From a virus (taxonomy: Duplodnaviria > Heunggongvirae > Uroviricota > Caudoviricetes), in IMG/VR virus record IMGVR_UViG_2703718840_000011: 17,603 nucleotides of DNA; one strand, 5' to 3'. Positions 1-15,985 of this stretch are shown here, piece by piece. The position numbers were made by a program, and so were the translations under genes. The notes under the pieces were generated by a model, which worked only from the letters and a program-made list of their open reading frames with translations, made no database searches and was not told the origin of the DNA. How positions within the stretch are numbered: position 1 is the stretch's first letter; every line of letters begins with the position of its first letter.

Positions 1-207
1 ATGCCAAACGGCGCTGTGGACGCGTTAAAGGAAGAATTAACTCGACGCATCAGTAAGCGTTATGACGATGTAGAGGTGATCGTAAAAGCCACCAGCAACG
101 ATGGCCTTTCTGTTACACGCACTGCCGATAAAGATTCAGCTAAAACTTTTGTTCAGGAGACTCTGAAAGATACCTGGGAATCTGCTGACGAGTGGTTTGT
201 TCTCTAA
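1..207 (+). CDS. DinI-family (damage-inducible protein I-like) protein; probably 5'-truncated by the window edge
   Basis: 68-aa ORF ending ...[18 protein letters not shown], matching the conserved C-terminal ETWESADxWF signature of DinI-like proteins. Full-length DinI proteins are about 80 aa, so roughly 12 N-terminal residues appear to be missing. Family call is by motif recognition, not a search. Confidence 0.6.
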
Positions 208-273
208 TTAACACGTAAAATCGGTAACGGCTTGAAATCATTAAATACTCGCCCTATCGAAAGCTCACCAGCC

Positions 274-309
274 AGCCGCAACACGTTCTTACATATGACG
301 TGTCTGCGG
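274..309. repeat. 36-bp imperfect palindrome, copy 1 (AGCCGCAACACGTTCTTACATATGACGTGTCTGCGG)
   Basis: Seen directly: internal inverted arms CCGCAACACGT / ACGTGTCTGCGG. About 83 percent identical (30/36) to a second copy at 2741-2776 in the same orientation. Confidence 0.5.
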
Positions 310-323
310 TTTCAACTCCACCA

Positions 324-357
324 GCCCACCAATCATGATTGGGCTTTTTCGTTTTTC
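324..357 (+). terminator. Putative rho-independent terminator downstream of the DinI-like gene
   Basis: Short GC-containing hairpin (GCCCA ... TGGGC around the palindrome CCAATCATGATTGG) followed by CTTTTTCGTTTTTCTTC on the + strand. Confidence 0.4.
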
Positions 358-486
358 TTCACCTGCAAGCAAACCGTTGTATCATGGCGGAATGAAGATG
401 AGCTAGGAATAATCTTATGAATCAGCTCAATATTCATATAAAAACATTTCGAACTTTGGTGTACAAAACTACATAGGGATAACTTT

Positions 487-1689
487 ATGTCTCTTCGTTT
501 CAGACAAACCTTTACTTTATTTCCTGGCGTTCGACTCAACATTGGCAAGCGTGGAATAAGTGCAAGCATTGGTATGCCTGGCGCAACTGTCAATGTTGGT
601 AAAAAAGGGGTTAGAGCAACTGTCGGATTACCGGGCACAGGCTTATCTTATACTACACCTACCTTGCCCTATGATGATGGATACTCAGTTACCAATCCAT
701 TAAATCCAGCCCCTACAGAACCTCATTTGGGGTCTGGGTCATCTCCAGAAAACACACCATCGAACGCTAAAATATATATGCCTGTAGCTGGCATGAATGA
801 AATATCCAGCGCTTCGGTAGAAGTCCTTACAAGTACCTCCCTTTTACCTTTACGAGATTTGATTGCTAAAGCACGAGAACAAAGAGCAGAGATAAAAGCA
901 GATCTTCAAGAGGCTCTTGCCGAAGAATCAAAACAAAAAAGCGAGCTGGCTCGACGCAAATCAAGTCTATTCCGTTGGTTTTACAAACGACGCATCGCAG
1001 AACTTGAGACACTACTCCCCCTAACCCAAGCTGAGATATCTCGCCTAGTTTCATGGGAAGACAGCACAAAAATAGCCATAACATTCGAGAGCAGTGATGC
1101 TTCACAGCGCGCATATGCAGCGATGGTCCATGCATTTGATATGTTAAAATCGAGTGTCAAAAAATGGGATATTACTGCAGATAAAGCTACAGACCAGTTT
1201 GCTGAAAGAACATTAGCAACCCGGTCTGTTAATCGTCACCCAGTTACCTTTGATTTTAGTTCAACGGATCTCATTCAATTTACAGGGCGTGCGATGAGGT
1301 TTGAAAATGCAAATGGAGACGATATTTTGCTTTATCCTGGAGTTGCAGTCATACCACGAGCCGATGGAGCATTCGCTCTGATTGATTTACGCGAATTACA
1401 AATTAGTTCAGAATATCTAAGATTCCATGAGGAAGAAGGTGTTCCCAGTGACTCACGCATAGATGGTTATACATGGGCGAAAACGAATAAGAATGGCTCA
1501 CCAGACCGTCGTTTTAAAGACAACTACCAAATCCCTATTTGCATTTATGGAAATATTACTTTCCATTCTCAAACAGGGGTAACTGAAGAATATATGGTAT
1601 CAAATGCAGATGCCGCGCACGCCTTTGCTGAGGCAGTAAAACGCTATCAGATTTCACTCACAGAAACAGAAGCGTTGGTACAAGCCTAA
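487..1689 (+). CDS. Hypothetical protein with N-terminal DUF4236-like glycine-rich motif (400 aa)
   Basis: Long ORF with AGGGA about 8 nt upstream of the ATG. N-terminus FRQTFTLFPGVRLNIGKRGISASIGMPGATVNVGKKGVRATVGLPGTGLSY fits the pattern I associate with DUF4236; the remaining ~340 aa have no domain I recognise. AT-rich relative to neighbouring phage genes. Confidence 0.7.
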   Translation: MSLRFRQTFTLFPGVRLNIGKRGISASIGMPGATVNVGKKGVRATVGLPGTGLSYTTPTLPYDDGYSVTNPLNPAPTEPHLGSGSSPENTPSNAKIYMPVAGMNEISSASVEVLTSTSLLPLRDLIAKAREQRAEIKADLQEALAEESKQKSELARRKSSLFRWFYKRRIAELETLLPLTQAEISRLVSWEDSTKIAITFESSDASQRAYAAMVHAFDMLKSSVKKWDITADKATDQFAERTLATRSVNRHPVTFDFSSTDLIQFTGRAMRFENANGDDILLYPGVAVIPRADGAFALIDLRELQISSEYLRFHEEEGVPSDSRIDGYTWAKTNKNGSPDRRFKDNYQIPICIYGNITFHSQTGVTEEYMVSNADAAHAFAEAVKRYQISLTETEALVQA

Positions 1690-1885
1690 TTTATCGCCGA
1701 TATGGGGACGAATCGTAGGTTAAAACCCCTCGAACAAAAAAACCTTAAGAACCAGACTATTATGGCTGGTTCTTATACGGAGGATTTGTTATTGTACAAC
1801 TCTTCTATCTGGTATATTTACGGATAGAACTGTTCGGGCTACTCAATCCTTTTTAAGTACAAATGAACAGATAGAAATAGTTATA

Positions 1886-2688
1886 TTGCAAGGAGCTATC
1901 ATGCACACTGAGTATATATGGCGATATCTTGACATAGAGAAGTTCTCTATGTTACTCGAACAAAATGCTTTATTTTTTTGCTCAGCAAAAAATTTTGAAG
2001 ATCCGTTCGAAGGTGAATTTGCTTGGGGACATACTGGCTATAAAAAATTCATTGAGACACAGGAAAAACTATGCGCTACTCATGGTGCCGGCATGGACTT
2101 AGAGCCTTTCATGGCATTCAATTTAAAGACACTTAAGGAAATAAGCGAGAGGACATATATAAGTTGCTGGCATTGTAACGAACATGAATCTGAAGCTATG
2201 TGGAAGCTGTATTGTAAAAACCCCGCTAAAGGCGTTGTCATAAAATCAAAGAAAAAAACCTCCAAAGCCAACTTGAAAATAATAATCTAAACAAACTACA
2301 ATTAAAACACGTAAAATACATCAAAAATTTCTGGATAAAACAATACAATCCAGAATCAGATGTATTCTTTAACAAGAGACCATCTTTCGAACACGAAAAA
2401 GAGTTTAGAGCTATTTTTCAAGAGAATACCTTTAACACTCCACCTGTAAAGGGAAAATTAGTCCCTGTATCTCTTAATAATCTGTTGGAAGAAATAAGGA
2501 TTTCACCTTTCGCAGATAAGGATTTCAAAAATGAAGTTTTACAAATTTCAAAAAAATATGGACTAGATCTAAAAGTCAAAAACTCTGAAATTGAAATGCA
2601 TCCCATCATGCATGTTGAGGAAGAAATAATTGCAGAAGGCCCCAATTGGTATCAGTCAAAAATCAGGTTGGCAATACGTGATGCTTAA
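1886..2688 (+). pseudogene. DUF2971-like protein gene interrupted by a -1 frame change in an A7 run (track ORFs 1886-2290 and 2485-2688 are the two halves)
   Basis: N-terminal half carries the DUF2971-like signature (RYLDIEKF...LFFCSAKNFEDPFEGE). Frame 1 is open from about 2230 to 2688 and continues the protein sensibly. Adding one A to the A7 run at about 2252-2258 would fuse both halves into one ~267-aa ORF, a typical DUF2971 length. Confidence 0.6.
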
Positions 2689-2740
2689 TCTTATATTGAA
2701 TTTTTTTATGTCTCCTGCTGAAACTAGCTAAAATTTACCA

Positions 2741-2776
2741 AGCCGCAGCACGTTATTGCATACAACGTGTATGCGG
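2741..2776. repeat. 36-bp imperfect palindrome, copy 2 (AGCCGCAGCACGTTATTGCATACAACGTGTATGCGG)
   Basis: Seen directly: 30/36 identity with the copy at 274-309, same orientation. Lies between the stop of the DUF2971-like gene and the stop of tfa (convergent), so it may also act as a hairpin terminator for the minus-strand tail operon. Confidence 0.5.
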
Positions 2777-2791
2777 CGTATCTCAAAACGA

Positions 2792-3376
2792 TTACTCCAT
2801 AACAGGGACAGCAGGCCACTCAATATCCGGTGCTACTGATGTATCAACACGGTTCAGCAACACCCGATACTTTTTCCAGGCTTCCAGCAATGAGGTTTCT
2901 TCCTCCGTTGCAATTTCCAGATCTGCAGCATCCTGAAGCGGCGCAATATGCTCACTGGCTACCTGCATCAGGTTGTTTTTTGTTTCTTCCGCCTCCCGGA
3001 TCCGGAACAGTTTTTCTGCTTCCGTATCCTTCACCCAGGCTGTGCCGTTCCACTTCTGAAACTCCCCTTCCGGCGATAACCAGGTAACATTTTCCGGTAA
3101 CGGACCGAGTTCAGAAATAAATAACTCGTCCCCTGACGCTACGTCATAAACCGTTTTACCCCGATGGTCTTCAACGAGATGCCACGATGCCTCATCACTG
3201 TTGAAAACAGCCACAAAGCCAGCAGGAATATCTGGTGGTGCAATATCGGTACTGTTTGCTGGCAGACCTGTATGAGGCGGAATATATGCGTCACCTTCAC
3301 CAATAAATTCATTAGTTCCGGCCAGCAGATTATAAATTTTTATGGTCCGTGCTTGTTCACTCATTCTGAATGCCAT
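2792..3376 (-). CDS. tfa: Tail fiber assembly protein (Tfa family, lambdoid type)
   Basis: 194-aa [57 protein letters not shown]... closely matches Tfa proteins of E. coli lambdoid prophages as I recall them. Start overlaps the stop of the upstream stf-type ORF (TAATG). Confidence 0.85.
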
Positions 3377-4455
3377 TATGCAAGCCTCACAATATAGTTA
3401 AATGCGATGTTTTTGACGGTGTTTTCCGCGTTACCCGCAGCGTTAACGGTGATGGTGTGTCCATGTGAACCAATCGCAACGGAGTGCGTATGCGCACCAA
3501 TACCTACAGTATGTGCATGTGCGCCAGAACTTGCTGCAGTACCAGACAGCGAGTGGGTATGAGCACCTGCTGACTGTGTCTGAATACGTTGATAATACGA
3601 TCTATAGGAAGAAGTCTCCGGGCTTACTTGATACTGTGAATTCTGGACATAAGTGAACCCACCGCCATCATAAAATGCTAACGCAGAACCGCCGCCTCCT
3701 GGCCAACGAATACCATTACCATGAGTATGAACACCGGCAGACCCCGTAGAGCCACTCAGACTGTGCGTATGCGCCCCGGTGTTATTCGTGGATTTAGTGC
3801 CGTAATCAAACGACGATGTGGTTTTCGTCCCTAAATCCGTACTGGATGCGCTGGCGCTGTGGGTGTGCGATTTAATGCCGTCCTGTTCCTGAGACAATAC
3901 GGCCCGGCCACTGGCGGGTTTGCCCTTGATTGTCCAGCCGCGCATATCTGGAATAACACCTGAAGGATAGGCAATAGCCAGTTTCGGATATGCTGCCTTA
4001 TCAAACGTCTGCCCCTGCATGATTGCATAACCTGCAGGTGGTGTATCTGATGGCCACGGCAGCGGAACACCTGGCGGAAACGCTTCAATATTTGCCGAGC
4101 CGTCAAATTTTACGCCGTTAATTGTCCTTGCAGTTTGCAATTTGGTTGCTGTGCTTGCATTACCCGATAAAGATCCAGTGATACCACCACTCGCGTTTAA
4201 TTTAGTTGCAATTGTAACATTGCCAGTATGGTTACTAATTATAAACGGCCTTAAGCTATTGTGCGTACCAAGACTGTTAAACTCATAACGGTATTTCACG
4301 TTAATCCCGTTCAGATCATCACTACCGGGAACGTTCGTCGAGGCATGGAGATACCCCGCGCTCAGCGTGGACTGATGTTCTGCTGCACTCGCTGGCGTAG
4401 CAGCGGCGACCTGCCAGACTACTGCGGACAAAATAACAGCACATAATTTACGCAT
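3376..4455 (-). CDS. Chimeric ORF: Lom-type signal peptide and N-terminus (~60 aa) fused in frame to the C-terminal part of a side tail fiber (Stf-type) protein
   Basis: N-terminus [59 protein letters not shown] is lambda Lom-like (signal peptide plus first beta strands). The rest is tail-fiber-like ([13 protein letters not shown], repeated HxH motifs, C-terminal [11 protein letters not shown]). Junction near 4270-4285. GAGG RBS upstream of the ATG. Confidence 0.7.
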
Positions 4456-4477
4456 AATTACCTCTCGCTTTTCTGCA

Positions 4478-4504
4478 ATAAAAAAGGCGCCATTTCTGGC
4501 GCCC
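4478..4504 (-). terminator. Rho-independent terminator between J remnant and lom' (tJ-like)
   Basis: On the minus strand: GGCGCC-AGAAAT-GGCGCC hairpin followed by TTTTTTATTGC, located between the J' stop and the lom' RBS. Confidence 0.55.
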
Positions 4505-4522
4505 GTATCTGGGTTATAAAAT

Positions 4523-5660
4523 TCAGCTAATCGTGATGCCTGCAGTGGCTTTCTTCATCACCACAACCAGCAAATCGCTGATACTTGCTGTGGGATACCA
4601 GTTATTTACCAGCCATGCTGACACCGAAAACTCCAGTGTCATGTGACCGTGACCGGCAGGCATATCAATAACACCACTGTAAATCAGCGTATTATCCAGC
4701 GCGGTACGGTTATAAATTTCAGCACCGTTTTTCCGTACTATCAGGCGGCATAACGAATAAATATCGTTATTCTCCCGCTCATGTTTAGCGCCGCTGAATG
4801 CCACCGCCGGAATAACAATCTGCCGGTCAAACGGCTGATCGTCATAAACCCTGACGGTGATGGTCCCTGATGGCCACCGTTCCGGTGCACGGGAGTCCCG
4901 GGGGAAAGCTTTGCCCACTGTTTTAACGAGATCGCCTTCAATCTGGTTGGCGGACAATTTTCCCAGAACCCGACAGTTCTCGTTAATCGTGACGTTGTTG
5001 AGCGTCCCGGAGTTCGCATTCACGTTACCGCTGATATCGGCATTTTTCGCCGTCAGCCGCCCGTCCGGTGTCAGGGAAAATGCCGGAGGATTACCGCCGC
5101 TGGTAATGGTCGGAGCCGTCAGGCGTTTCAGGAACACGTCGTTCATGAATATCTGATCGCCCTGACCAACAAACATCGGCTTTGTGTTGCCATTCGCAGG
5201 ATTAATCATCGCAATCCGGTCAGCAGCCAGAAGCACCTGACTCTGCATACCTGCTGGCGTATTCTCAATACCGGCTCCGATACCCGCAATATAAAGGCGT
5301 CCGTCCTTCATCTGCTGCAGTTTCACGGCCCACATGCTGTTCAGGTTATTATTTGTATCAACCTGAACTTTCTGTATCTGCTGGATTGCCGCACTCTGGT
5401 CTTCCAGTTTTTTATTGACGGTCTGCGTGATTTCATTGCTGACATTCGTAATGGACGTCCTGATTTCAGCCAGGTCCGGCGCAAGCTGACCGTTATCAAT
5501 CTGCGTCCACAACTCCTGGGCCAGATGTGTTTTCCCGATTTCTCCTTTGAAAAAATCCAGGTAACCTTCCGCATCATCGCTCGCCCGACCGACAGCCTCC
5601 ACGAATGCCGATTTGCCAACGGTGTTCACACTGCGAACGTAAAAATAATAATCATGGCCC
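4523..5660 (-). pseudogene. C-terminal ~380-aa fragment of J-type host specificity (central tail fiber) protein; N-terminal two-thirds deleted
   Basis: Translation from ...[39 protein letters not shown]... through [30 protein letters not shown] to the C-terminus matches the C-terminal region of lambda J as I recall it. The first ~34 codons of the track ORF (starting at 5758) are out-of-frame read-through of rusA sequence. Full J proteins are about 1100 aa. Confidence 0.7.
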
Positions 5661-5891
5661 GGTTTGATATTGATACTGGCGGCTATCCGGAGGAAACAAC
5701 ACGATCTCCACTGAAGCAGGTGCCGACGTTGGTTTCGGCAGGCGACGTAACTGCTCAACTATTGCTGCGCACGCCGCGCTCTGGAATTTGCGCCCCGCTG
5801 CGCTTATCAGACTCTTACCAGCAAACGCCCCTTTGTTGGGGTGTCGCCAGTACGTGTTCACGCTGGGCGGAAAAGGCAGGATCAGCTTCAT
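5652..5891 (-). pseudogene. rusA: RusA-family Holliday junction resolvase, N-terminal fragment (truncated at the deletion junction with J)
   Basis: MKLILPFPPSVNTYWRH... matches the RusA N-terminal LPxPPSxN motif. The ORF ends after 79 aa with non-homologous residues (YQYQTGP), whereas RusA is about 120 aa. GAGAGGGG RBS and ATGA overlap with the upstream gene are intact. Confidence 0.55.
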
Positions 5892-13494: not shown

Positions 13495-13704
13495 ATGGCA
13501 AAACTAATGAAAGCGAGCCAATGGGGACGCCGTGAATTCTCTAATGGCTCAATTCCTGACAACCGAACGATAAAACGCTGGGTCGAGAACGGTCTGCTCA
13601 TGGGGCGTATAGTGGACGGTTCTGTTTTTGTCTGCGAAACAGAAAAATGGGGAGTCGACTCAATGGTTAGTCAAGCTGTTCGCAAGTTAATAAATGAGGG
13701 ATGA
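13495..13704 (+). CDS. xis: Excisionase (lambda Xis-type)
   Basis: KASQWGRREFSNGSIPDNRTIKRWVENGLLMGRIVDGSVFVCETEKWGV parallels lambda Xis (LQEWNARQRRPRSLETVRRWVRECRIFPP...GREYLFHESAVKV). Start chosen at the ATG with GGAG 8 nt upstream. Its stop overlaps the integrase start. Confidence 0.6.
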   Translation: MAKLMKASQWGRREFSNGSIPDNRTIKRWVENGLLMGRIVDGSVFVCETEKWGVDSMVSQAVRKLINEG

Positions 13705-14885
13705 CCATGGCGGCAAGGCCACGTAAAAAAGAATACAGACATCTTCCTGATTATCTGGTTTTTGATAAAGATCGAGGTGTTTATAAATTCACACTTATTA
13801 CCGGAAAAAAGAAAAATATAGGTAAGGATCGGGCAATAGCCGTTGCAATCGCCAGAGAGTACAACCTGAGGATGCGATCAGAATTATACCCATCAGTGGA
13901 TAATCTTATTAGAGAATCTGGCGGGGTCACCGGAGAAGCAAAACCATTTGCTGAACATGTCGATCACATAATGGCCAGAATTATCGAAGACGAACGACCT
14001 TCCCAGAGTACCTTAGATGACTGGAAAAATGACGCTCTACGCGTAAAAGCATTTTTCGTAAATGTTCCGGCATGCGATATCGAACTTGAACACGTTAATG
14101 CCTACATCAACAAATATCATGCCAGCGCATCCGCAAATGTGCAGAACAGAAAGGTCAGCTTTCTTAAAAAGTTGTTCTCTTATGCGGTCGATGAATCACT
14201 AATGCAGGATAACCCGGCCATCAGAAAAAAAATGCGTAGGACTGATGAGAAGAAAAGACGGCGCCTGTCACTCGAGCATTTTATAGCTATCAGGCAGGCC
14301 GCTGCACCATGGTTAAGAACAGCAATGGACCTAGCATTGCAGACTACACATGCACGACTCGAAGTATCGCGAATCCGTTACTCAATTCGCGAACCTAAAG
14401 ACGGTTTATGTGGATGTGTTTGGTTCGAACAACCACAAAATGGCATATATGGTACACTATACATCCATAGGCAAAAAGTACAAAAAAAGGAGGCATCACA
14501 TGTTGCAATACCAATTGGTGAAGAATTGAAACGGATAATTGACAATAGCCGTGACAATGTGGCCAGTCCCTTTGTCGTTCATAGAATCCCAGAACGGCAT
14601 GTTAAACGCAGTAAAGAGGTTTCGCACCCAACTCAAGTTGCACCAGATTATTTGAGTCGGTCATTCTCTTCCGTGCGAGACAAACTCGGACTATGCAATC
14701 ATCTAGCAATGGAACAAAGACCTACATTCCATGAAATAAGAGCTTTGGCAGCTCACCTATTTGATAAACAAGGGATTGATCCGCAGGGACGAATGGCACA
14801 TAGCGATGCGAAATCTACTAAAATTTATACTAAAAATCATATAGATTGGATTGTTGTCCCTCATGGAGAAATTAAAACCGGTTAG
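13701..14885 (+). CDS. int: Tyrosine-type site-specific integrase (lambda Int family)
   Basis: 394 aa. C-terminal catalytic region with H-x-x-R (TFHEIRALAAHLF) and the tyrosine motif (MAHSDAKSTKIYTKNH). Arm-binding-like N-terminus. Xis immediately upstream. Confidence 0.9.
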   Translation: MTMAARPRKKEYRHLPDYLVFDKDRGVYKFTLITGKKKNIGKDRAIAVAIAREYNLRMRSELYPSVDNLIRESGGVTGEAKPFAEHVDHIMARIIEDERPSQSTLDDWKNDALRVKAFFVNVPACDIELEHVNAYINKYHASASANVQNRKVSFLKKLFSYAVDESLMQDNPAIRKKMRRTDEKKRRRLSLEHFIAIRQAAAPWLRTAMDLALQTTHARLEVSRIRYSIREPKDGLCGCVWFEQPQNGIYGTLYIHRQKVQKKEASHVAIPIGEELKRIIDNSRDNVASPFVVHRIPERHVKRSKEVSHPTQVAPDYLSRSFSSVRDKLGLCNHLAMEQRPTFHEIRALAAHLFDKQGIDPQGRMAHSDAKSTKIYTKNHIDWIVVPHGEIKTG

Positions 14886-15022: not shown

Positions 15023-15985
15023 TTATTTACCCTTATTATACTCTTCAGTAATCTTATTCATGGATGATATATATTTATCCAGCCCACCATAGTTGGCTAT
15101 CATTCGAAATGAATTACGGTACTCTGCCATTTTCACATCATGATTAGTAATTCCACACCAGCCACAAACTTTATTTTCCATGTTTAAAGGCTCATAACAT
15201 TTTTTACATTGCCTTGATGCAGGTATTATATTGCCATTAATAAATTGGTGTGATTTGAGATTTTGAGATAAAAGAAATGGTGTAGTTGTTGTTTTTCCTA
15301 TTACCATTTCGAAATATCTACATTTAGCCTTTTTAGCTAAAGATTGAATTTTCTGCTTTAATAAATCATTTGATTTGTGCCCAACTATAACTCCAGTTAT
15401 ACAATTAATCGGTACCGGAAGGAGCATAAGATTGTCATTCAGTTTAGTAAGTGCTTTCTCATTAATTATTACGCGACGTTCCTGCTCATAACTCCAGCAA
15501 GTTTGTTTTGTCAAATATGCGGCTGTCATTATACAGGATTGTAGCCAGTAGATATAACGAGGTTTACAGATATGAAATGCTCTCGCCAGAATGTCTTCAA
15601 TACCTGTATCTGGAGAATCTTTATATTCAACATCTGCTATTGAACTATGATCCTGGAAGCCGATTTCATCCAAATACTTTTTAAACTTCTCCTCATTAAT
15701 CTCTATTACAAAACCAGAAGAATTACCTGCATAATGTGCCCACATAGGTGGTATCACAGGGCTTTTCGTAAAACAAGTTGCTGGTTGTTTTGTAACCATG
15801 CCAATCATTTCATTGTAAAATGCTAACTCATCAGAACCGCGATTAAAATCAATAGTAAGGAAAAACTCATAGGGATCATTATATTCATGTAAATGAGAGA
15901 ATTTTATTCCTATATGTGTTTCATCCATCATCAATTTATCAATTATATCCGCTCCCATAAACTTATACAAATTGGTCATATACAA
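15023..15985 (-). CDS. DUF2971-family protein with C-terminal CxxC...CxxC zinc ribbon (320 aa)
   Basis: N-terminal NLYKFMGADIIDKL...IKFSHLHEYNDPYEF matches the DUF2971 hallmark (LYKY...FS.P..FNDPFE). C-terminus CKKCYEPLNMENKVCGWCG. AAGGAG RBS 7 nt upstream. Strongly AT-rich gene and flanks. Confidence 0.75.
   Translation of the reverse strand: MYMTNLYKFMGADIIDKLMMDETHIGIKFSHLHEYNDPYEFFLTIDFNRGSDELAFYNEMIGMVTKQPATCFTKSPVIPPMWAHYAGNSSGFVIEINEEKFKKYLDEIGFQDHSSIADVEYKDSPDTGIEDILARAFHICKPRYIYWLQSCIMTAAYLTKQTCWSYEQERRVIINEKALTKLNDNLMLLPVPINCITGVIVGHKSNDLLKQKIQSLAKKAKCRYFEMVIGKTTTTPFLLSQNLKSHQFINGNIIPASRQCKKCYEPLNMENKVCGWCGITNHDVKMAEYRNSFRMIANYGGLDKYISSMNKITEEYNKGK

Follow-up and report, generated by a model that had tools for sequence, protein, structure and literature searches.

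The DUF2971 gene analysed here is most probably an ordinary pseudogene allele, in which a heritable deletion of one nucleotide from a run of eight A residues (A8 to A7) would have inactivated a candidate defence gene carried by a decaying prophage. The gene lies near the beginning of a stretch of E. coli DNA of 17,603 nucleotides (from here on, the window), in a lambdoid prophage that is inserted beside tRNA-Pro, downstream of yejM. The features on which the argument depends are as follows.

1890..1895, + strand: Shine-Dalgarno sequence AAGGAG, 5 nt upstream of ATG 1901, read from the sequence.
1901..2290, + strand: truncated ORF of 129 aa (frame A), composed of native residues M1-K119 and the out-of-frame tail TSKANLKIII, then a stop.
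1973..1979, + strand: T7 run, another hot spot of indels within the DUF2971 gene; it has its intact length (T7) in the window.
2252..2258, + strand: A7 homopolymer, from which 1 nt is deleted; intact alleles have A8 at this place (AAG AAA AAA AAC, encoding KKKN).
2257..2688, + strand: frame B (-1), the coding sequence for N120-A262, the 143 residues with which the DUF2971 protein ends; its translation is identical to the C-terminus of the intact protein of E. coli CFS3313.
2395..2403, + strand: codons of the ExE motif, E166-K-E168, the presumed catalytic glutamates; invariant in 63 homologues and located downstream of the frameshift.
2407-2409, + strand: codon of the invariant R170.

The A7 run stands in the context AAG AAA AAA ACC, within ATA AAA TCA AAG AAA AAA ACC TCC. 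Frame A, whose C-terminus reads ...KSKKK TSKANLKIII*, terminates at the TAA of 2288-2290, that is, 10 sense codons past the run, or 13 codons if one counts from the AAG that begins GAAAAAAACC. Frame B, which is -1 with respect to frame A, is open from 2230 to the stop codon at 2686-2688 and reads ...NLQSQLENNNLNKLQLKHVKYIKNFWIKQYNPE..., its translation up to that stop including ...KNLQSQLENNNLNKLQLKHVKYIKNFWIKQYNPE...; it aligns with homologues over its full length, and no translation of it is expected from the A7 allele unless slippage takes place. The third reading frame at the locus is full of stops. Addition of a single A fuses frames A and B into one ORF, which encodes 262 aa when read from ATG 1901 and 267 aa when read from TTG 1886, the start assigned by the program that listed the ORFs (ORF 1886-2290). 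Since ATG 1901 is preceded at a spacing of 5 nt by the AAGGAG sequence, and since homologues of 254-262 aa begin at the equivalent Met, we take ATG 1901 to be the real start. The 262-aa protein restored in this way is identical to the product of the intact allele of CFS3313, and the window allele therefore carries a single lesion. Runs of seven A residues are not unusual as such (12 observed in the window versus 10.6 expected); what gives this one its significance is that the reading frame of a conserved protein is broken there. A preliminary description of this DNA had proposed that a DUF2971-like gene is split at the A7 run by a one-base frame change, and that the -1 frame, open to 2688, provides a plausible continuation. 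The sequence and its frames bear out this layout, and frame B does encode the remainder of the DUF2971 protein. The same description expected an extra A to restore a protein of ~267 aa; a single ORF is indeed restored, but its length is 262 aa, with the start at ATG 1901.

The proposed membership in the DUF2971 family holds as well, and it is only the restored protein that passes the Pfam model (PF11185). Its score of 29.3 bits, against a gathering cut-off of 22 bits, is obtained over residues 100-170 and hence across the frameshift, whereas of the two halves alone the N-terminal ORF gives no match and the C-terminal frame reaches 14.6 bits, which is below the cut-off. The restored protein also matches four PADLOC models of PDC-S31, with a best E value of 1.2e-21; PDC-S31 is a computational candidate system, which no paper found in our literature search mentions. 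Of the 72 homologues found at E <= 1e-5, the 43-63 that were examined are all single-frame and roughly 240-330 aa long, and the closest relatives (at least 42% identity) are single-frame proteins of 248-292 aa, with the exception of a 175-aa protein-database entry (P0020), which is the truncated A7 product itself. Residues invariant among 63 homologues fall on both sides of the junction, with D34, C89, W90 and W101 upstream of it and Y140, K159, E166, E168, R170 and P203 downstream. The possibility that the short form is the native gene, with orthologues all ending where frame A ends, was thus looked for, and every homologue proved to be single-frame and to carry invariant residues beyond the break.

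What the intact protein does can be approached through its relatives. Its AlphaFold model (pLDDT 92.9) shows the beta-sandwich fold of ADP-ribosyltransferases (ARTs), and the best structural matches in a fold search are the DarT DNA ADP-ribosyltransferases. At the sequence level, a search of the PDB with the family profile yielded no relatives, its sole match being a spore germination protein at E = 0.32. DUF2971 proteins have been predicted to form part of the HYE clade of ARTs, related to DarT and AbiGi and having a conserved ExE motif III, with little conservation reported for the motif I His (PMC12522546). Among DUF2971 proteins, only a distant one, Aristaios of Lactococcus, has experimental data on abortive infection (PMC11381338). 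From this resemblance in fold, motif and family we infer that the intact protein is most likely a stand-alone, NAD+-dependent ADP-ribosylating toxin, which would serve as single-gene anti-phage prophage cargo acting by abortive infection or superinfection exclusion. With Aristaios it shares the Pfam domain, the single-gene architecture, the predicted ART fold and carriage by a mobile element; Aristaios differs in being a plasmid-borne protein of 316 aa from Lactococcus, and the likeness is one of a shared domain. To DarT, the single-stranded DNA thymidine ADP-ribosyltransferase toxin of DarTG, its sequence identity is only 9-13%, and unlike DarT it has large helical inserts. Furthermore, no DarG-like macrodomain antitoxin lies beside the DUF2971 gene, whose neighbours encode a DUF4236 protein and a tail-fibre assembly protein; therefore, the gene does not represent a DarTG system. 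It has no conserved partner of any kind, its neighbours being DUF4236 and tfa (tail-fibre assembly) in E. coli versus Ogr and CAT in Enterobacter soli, and it is stand-alone just as PDC-S31 is, the window allele differing in that it is frameshifted. Its positions, at the end of a lambdoid prophage in E. coli and after gpD/Ogr of a P2-like prophage in E. soli, are typical of defence cargo. A tblastn search of sequenced phages returned one distant match, in an Acinetobacter phage (26% identity), and the gene is known only from prophages. The A7 product, which retains residues 1-119, lacks E166, E168, R170 and about half of the fold and is therefore very probably inactive; accordingly, we regard the A7 allele as very probably non-functional.

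The strain comparison that the preliminary description had suggested, with A8 as the expected intact state, could be carried out on 5,426 complete E. coli genomes. The locus is present in 122 of them, one copy each, always on the chromosome and always in the lambdoid prophage beside tRNA-Pro/yejM. An 81-nt probe with A7 matched exactly in 35 genomes and an 82-nt probe with A8 in 52; about 33 further genomes are 1-2 SNPs away from the A8 probe, and all of those listed have the 82-nt length and are annotated 'DUF2971 domain-containing protein'. In total, ~85 carriers are A8 with an intact 262-aa ORF (a count of probe matches, inspected base by base for part of the alleles), 35 are A7 (~30%) and 2, namely 98218 and DETEC-P169, are A6 by direct inspection. 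In CFS3313 and 14 further genomes, the extra A is the only difference from the window within the gene. The comparison thus agrees with the proposal that A8 is the intact state, and also with the view that the difference is a homopolymer indel.

Whether such an indel is a true mutation or a sequencing error had been left undecided. Errors in homopolymer length are the commonest type of error in assemblies made from long reads only, so a source strain that is truly A8 could in principle have been miscalled as A7, and the odd double indels in some related assemblies (T8 with A7, T8 with A6) could partly be errors of this kind. The identical A7 allele is, however, found in 35 independently assembled complete genomes that come from many laboratories and platforms, among them six assemblies of the Ec-050 lineage as well as CT282, whose sequence agrees with that of the window at 100% identity for 871 nt and is also identical for most of the remaining window. 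CCUG 73778 and 4224, which have the same haplotype as the window, are A7 too, and the remainder of the window allele is without any other lesion. A mutation is thus strongly favoured, and we consider a miscall extremely improbable. In RefSeq, the A7 allele appears as a 113-aa 'hypothetical protein' (WP_225517690.1) that starts at ATG 1949 and has no pseudogene flag; the start of the intact gene is likewise placed at this internal ATG, 16 codons too late.

The direction and number of the changes in run length can be judged from an alignment of 21 genomes over window positions 1420-2770, which resolves three haplotype groups.

Outgroup haplotypes: M18, CI5, B7A, 07-4299, 0-4 and SC418, all A8.
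Haplotype X: OHT76-1 and 4114, both A8 (100% identical to the haplotype X query with A8); ~30 others, A7.
Haplotype W: 15 genomes with A8; the window, CT282, CCUG 73778 and 4224 with A7; 98218 and DETEC-P169 with A6.

Haplotypes W and X differ at 1942, 2320, 2458 and 2701, and the A7 members of haplotype X include the ST167-like Ec-050 series, FORC_042 and O25b:H4. EC23-1020, CT265 and HCM-28C-2 were considered as intermediates between X and W and rejected, being derivatives of X with private SNPs. A8 is the native state, as follows from its presence in all outgroup haplotypes and from 60+ homologues in other genera, each of which has a single frame. Because A7 occurs on two haplotypes, each of which also occurs with A8, the run length must have changed at least twice, and A6 on haplotype W represents one more change beyond these two. 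Recombinational transfer of the run state alone is unlikely, given that informative SNPs flank the run within 310 bp on one side and 68 bp on the other. Orthologues with 81-82% amino-acid identity (from E. soli, where the gene is at the end of a P2-like prophage, and from metagenomic contigs) read AAG AAA AAA ACA CTC, encoding KKKTL, at this place. Their A7 is in frame, being followed by CAC, and the tract of eight A residues is therefore specific to the E. coli lineage.

It is tempting to ask whether such a polymorphic tract could be a contingency locus, that is, a selected, reversible, phase-variable switch of a costly abortive-infection toxin, with A8 as the ON state and A7 or A6 as OFF. 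Several of the above observations would fit. Strains differ in having A6, A7 or A8; haplotypes W and X each include both A7 and A8 alleles, which requires no fewer than two independent changes in length; loss and subsequent reversion would, on the available SNPs, be as parsimonious as two separate losses; and the tract is longer (A8) in the E. coli lineage that shows the switching than in the orthologues with their in-frame A7. The gene also resembles homopolymer-tract pseudogenes and contingency loci in that the indel sits in its longest mononucleotide run and that this run is polymorphic and recurrently hit. A tract of 8 nt is short for a dedicated contingency locus, however, and the frequency of A7 runs in the window, being as expected, points to a chance product of AT-rich coding for Lys-Lys-Lys. 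Unlike at contingency loci, switching that is frequent or reversible is not in evidence; the six assemblies of the Ec-050 T0/T5/T20 series and other ST167-like genomes are all A7, so that no rapid switching is seen. Moreover, secondary frameshifts elsewhere in the OFF alleles point to irreversible decay. A switch of this kind is, on balance, very unlikely.

The secondary lesions also bear on whether the two-frame arrangement could be put to use by the cell. A second frameshift is present in 5 of the 37 genomes with a broken run and in 0 among the intact alleles listed (Fisher p = 0.002 when genomes are counted, a signal that is weaker when events are counted). Four of the five have T8 at 1973-1979, namely 65COLEC and PSJ-29 (haplotype X, A7) and 98218 and DETEC-P169 (haplotype W, A6), and CUVET20-1667 has an additional 1-nt deletion near 2566 besides its broken A-run. 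The combination of T8 and A7 in 65COLEC and PSJ-29, which has a net effect of zero, might be mistaken for compensation; we rejected this interpretation, as a stop codon occurs 6 codons after the T-run, and the combination is further decay. Extra frameshifts confined to alleles that are already broken therefore speak for decay and not for recoding, a pattern that is expected of a gene released from selection and is unlike that of a gene used via slippage.

The earlier suggestion that slippage at the A-run is possible can be agreed with, although nothing indicates that it is programmed. The 82 nt past the run fold at -0.79 kcal/mol (z = +0.96), which amounts to no RNA structure, and no well-placed internal Shine-Dalgarno sequence was found on reading the sequence. 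The in-phase heptamer is G_AAA_AAA and not a canonical X_XXY_YYZ, so that only the A-site codon re-pairs perfectly. The two-frame layout is also a minority state, since ~85 of the 122 alleles in E. coli have one frame only, as has every homologue from another genus; taken together with the lack of downstream structure, this led us to reject a programmed -1 frameshift. Nor does the run fit programmed transcriptional slippage, being 7 nt long (runs of A or T used for this are typically at least 9) and having its out-of-frame state in the minority allele.

Unprogrammed slippage is a different matter. Some full-length protein could perceivably be made from the A7 allele, either through a -1 slip of tRNA-Lys on G-AAA-AAA or through an extra A introduced by RNA polymerase, and the outcome would be a low dose of a potentially toxic ADP-ribosyltransferase. 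The phase is right for this, since in AAG|AAA|AAA|ACC a ribosome that slipped by -1 past the second AAA would continue with AAC CTC and so produce the wild-type KKKNLQ. As the slip would give exactly the wild-type protein, the allele may be leaky rather than null. At a C-AAA-AAA sequence in vector pDEST17, with T7-driven over-expression in E. coli and no obvious stimulator, ribosomal frameshifting by -1 was 25-60% (PMC1851650); this sequence may be seen as an analogue of the N-AAA-AAA formed by the A7 run. Like that site and like A_AAA_AAG of dnaX, the A7 run presents two in-phase AAA codons to the single tRNA-Lys of E. coli, and as at those sites a -1 shift would be productive, here by restoring the native protein. 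In addition, AAAAAAA is under-represented in all frames of Escherichia/Shigella coding sequences (PMC5009743), which implies that slippage carries real costs.

Against these points stand the differences from the known sites, for the A7 run has a G in the first position, is followed by no hairpin, stems from a recent deletion and has a layout that is not conserved, ~70% of E. coli alleles and all orthologues being in frame. The pDEST17 figures, moreover, refer to T7-driven over-expression near a 5' end, and on short runs E. coli RNA polymerase has been reported to be far less prone to slippage than the T7 enzyme (PMC6149199). Neither downstream structure nor a well-placed internal Shine-Dalgarno sequence would assist the event, and the later frameshifts in broken alleles are beyond rescue by a single slip, which argues against selection for expression. 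We therefore think it unlikely that the allele is leaky. A more elaborate proposal would be that the A8/A7 tract sets the dose of a toxic, DarT-like abortive-infection enzyme or turns it ON and OFF, the gene being a pseudo-pseudogene kept in ~30% of carriers, which would work through a trickle of full-length protein made by -1 slippage on G-AAA-AAA or through reversion to A8 under phage pressure. This we hold to be very unlikely.

To return to an inactivating deletion, which we favour, the events could have unfolded as follows. An AT-rich cargo gene of the prophage, situated between the cargo of the tRNA-Pro/attachment end (DinI-like, DUF4236) and the tail-fibre assembly gene, would have lost one base from its longest homopolymer. 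The deletion shifts the frame after K119 and leaves a 129-aa fragment without E166-x-E168/R170. The A8 tract is presumably a hot spot of replication slippage, and selection on the DUF2971 gene appears to be weak, or its loss may even be favoured; in combination these would explain why the lesion arose, or changed back, at least two times in E. coli. Broken alleles would then gather more frameshifts. The frameshift as such is an ordinary finding, and the interest that remains is in the repeated loss of a putative defence toxin and in a possible leaky -1 decoding. This toxin candidate, carried at a prophage end, has lost its frame at one and the same 8-A hot spot on two haplotypes or more and in ~30% of the carriers, which fits a rapid gain and loss of costly defence cargo. 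Were G-AAA-AAA leaky, the A7 allele would offer a natural test case for the expression of a 'pseudo-pseudogene' toxin, of which there is no indication here. The practical value lies mainly in annotation, the RefSeq label being 'hypothetical protein' where a frameshifted DUF2971 pseudogene is present.

The surroundings of the gene are those of acquired cargo in an eroding prophage. The order is tRNA-Pro, the DinI-like gene, the gene for the 400-aa DUF4236 protein and the DUF2971 gene, followed on the opposite strand by the genes for tail-fibre assembly, tail fibre, Lom and J. The G+C content of the DUF2971 gene is 30-37% versus ~50% for the tail genes, as is typical of acquired cargo. Compared with the undeleted prophage of CT282, the closest relative of the window, the window is without ~2.7 kb of the tail-fibre region and without ~27 kb between the tail-tip gene J and the RusA/regulatory region, the junction lying near 5680-5688; the prophage in the window is therefore a remnant, with deletions within ~3400-5690. 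A different internal deletion, which fuses the remainders of a tail-tip gene and an HTH gene, both truncated, is seen in 02A16CRGN003 and others. A scan of 1650-2850 for promoters and terminators gave background levels and was uninformative.

A second DUF2971/PDC-S31 gene, intact and encoding 320 aa, is located at 15023-15985 on the - strand (Pfam E = 2e-9, PADLOC E = 4e-22), next to the prophage integrase (13701-14885) at the opposite end of the element. The two DUF2971 proteins of the window share only ~21% identity across a local match of 67 residues, and the prophage thus has two distant paralogues of this candidate defence family, one at each end.

Among the neighbours, the DinI-like gene (window 1-207 and upstream) is flagged as 'frameshifted' by RefSeq in CT282, CFS3313 and 02A16CRGN003. 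The 68-aa DinI-like ORF of the window spans the whole DinI Pfam model (63/63, E = 7e-20), and it may be an N-terminal extension, and not lost function, that the pseudogene flag records. The DUF4236 protein, encoded at 487-1689 immediately upstream of the DUF2971 gene, is identical in most carriers (WP_001351450.1); it has no PADLOC match, and its Pfam match is to the 55-residue DUF4236 N-terminal domain only (residues 3-56). In E. soli, the DUF4236 gene is not linked to the DUF2971 orthologue. On the other side, the tail-fibre assembly gene (2700-3376) contains a full-length match to Rfam IS009 (RF02111) at 2835-3033 on the - strand (221 bits, E = 1.5e-54). This gene is represented by at least 8 protein accessions among carriers whose DUF2971 genes are at least 99% identical, and a recombination (mosaic) boundary therefore lies directly after the DUF2971 stop codon; in several strains tfa is truncated and is followed by a tail fibre with S74-peptidase and pyocin-knob domains. 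Finally, in HCM-28C-2 an IS1A element (locus 1-483) has replaced the gene for DUF4236 directly before the frameshifted DUF2971 gene, which is a further sign that the cargo module is being eroded.
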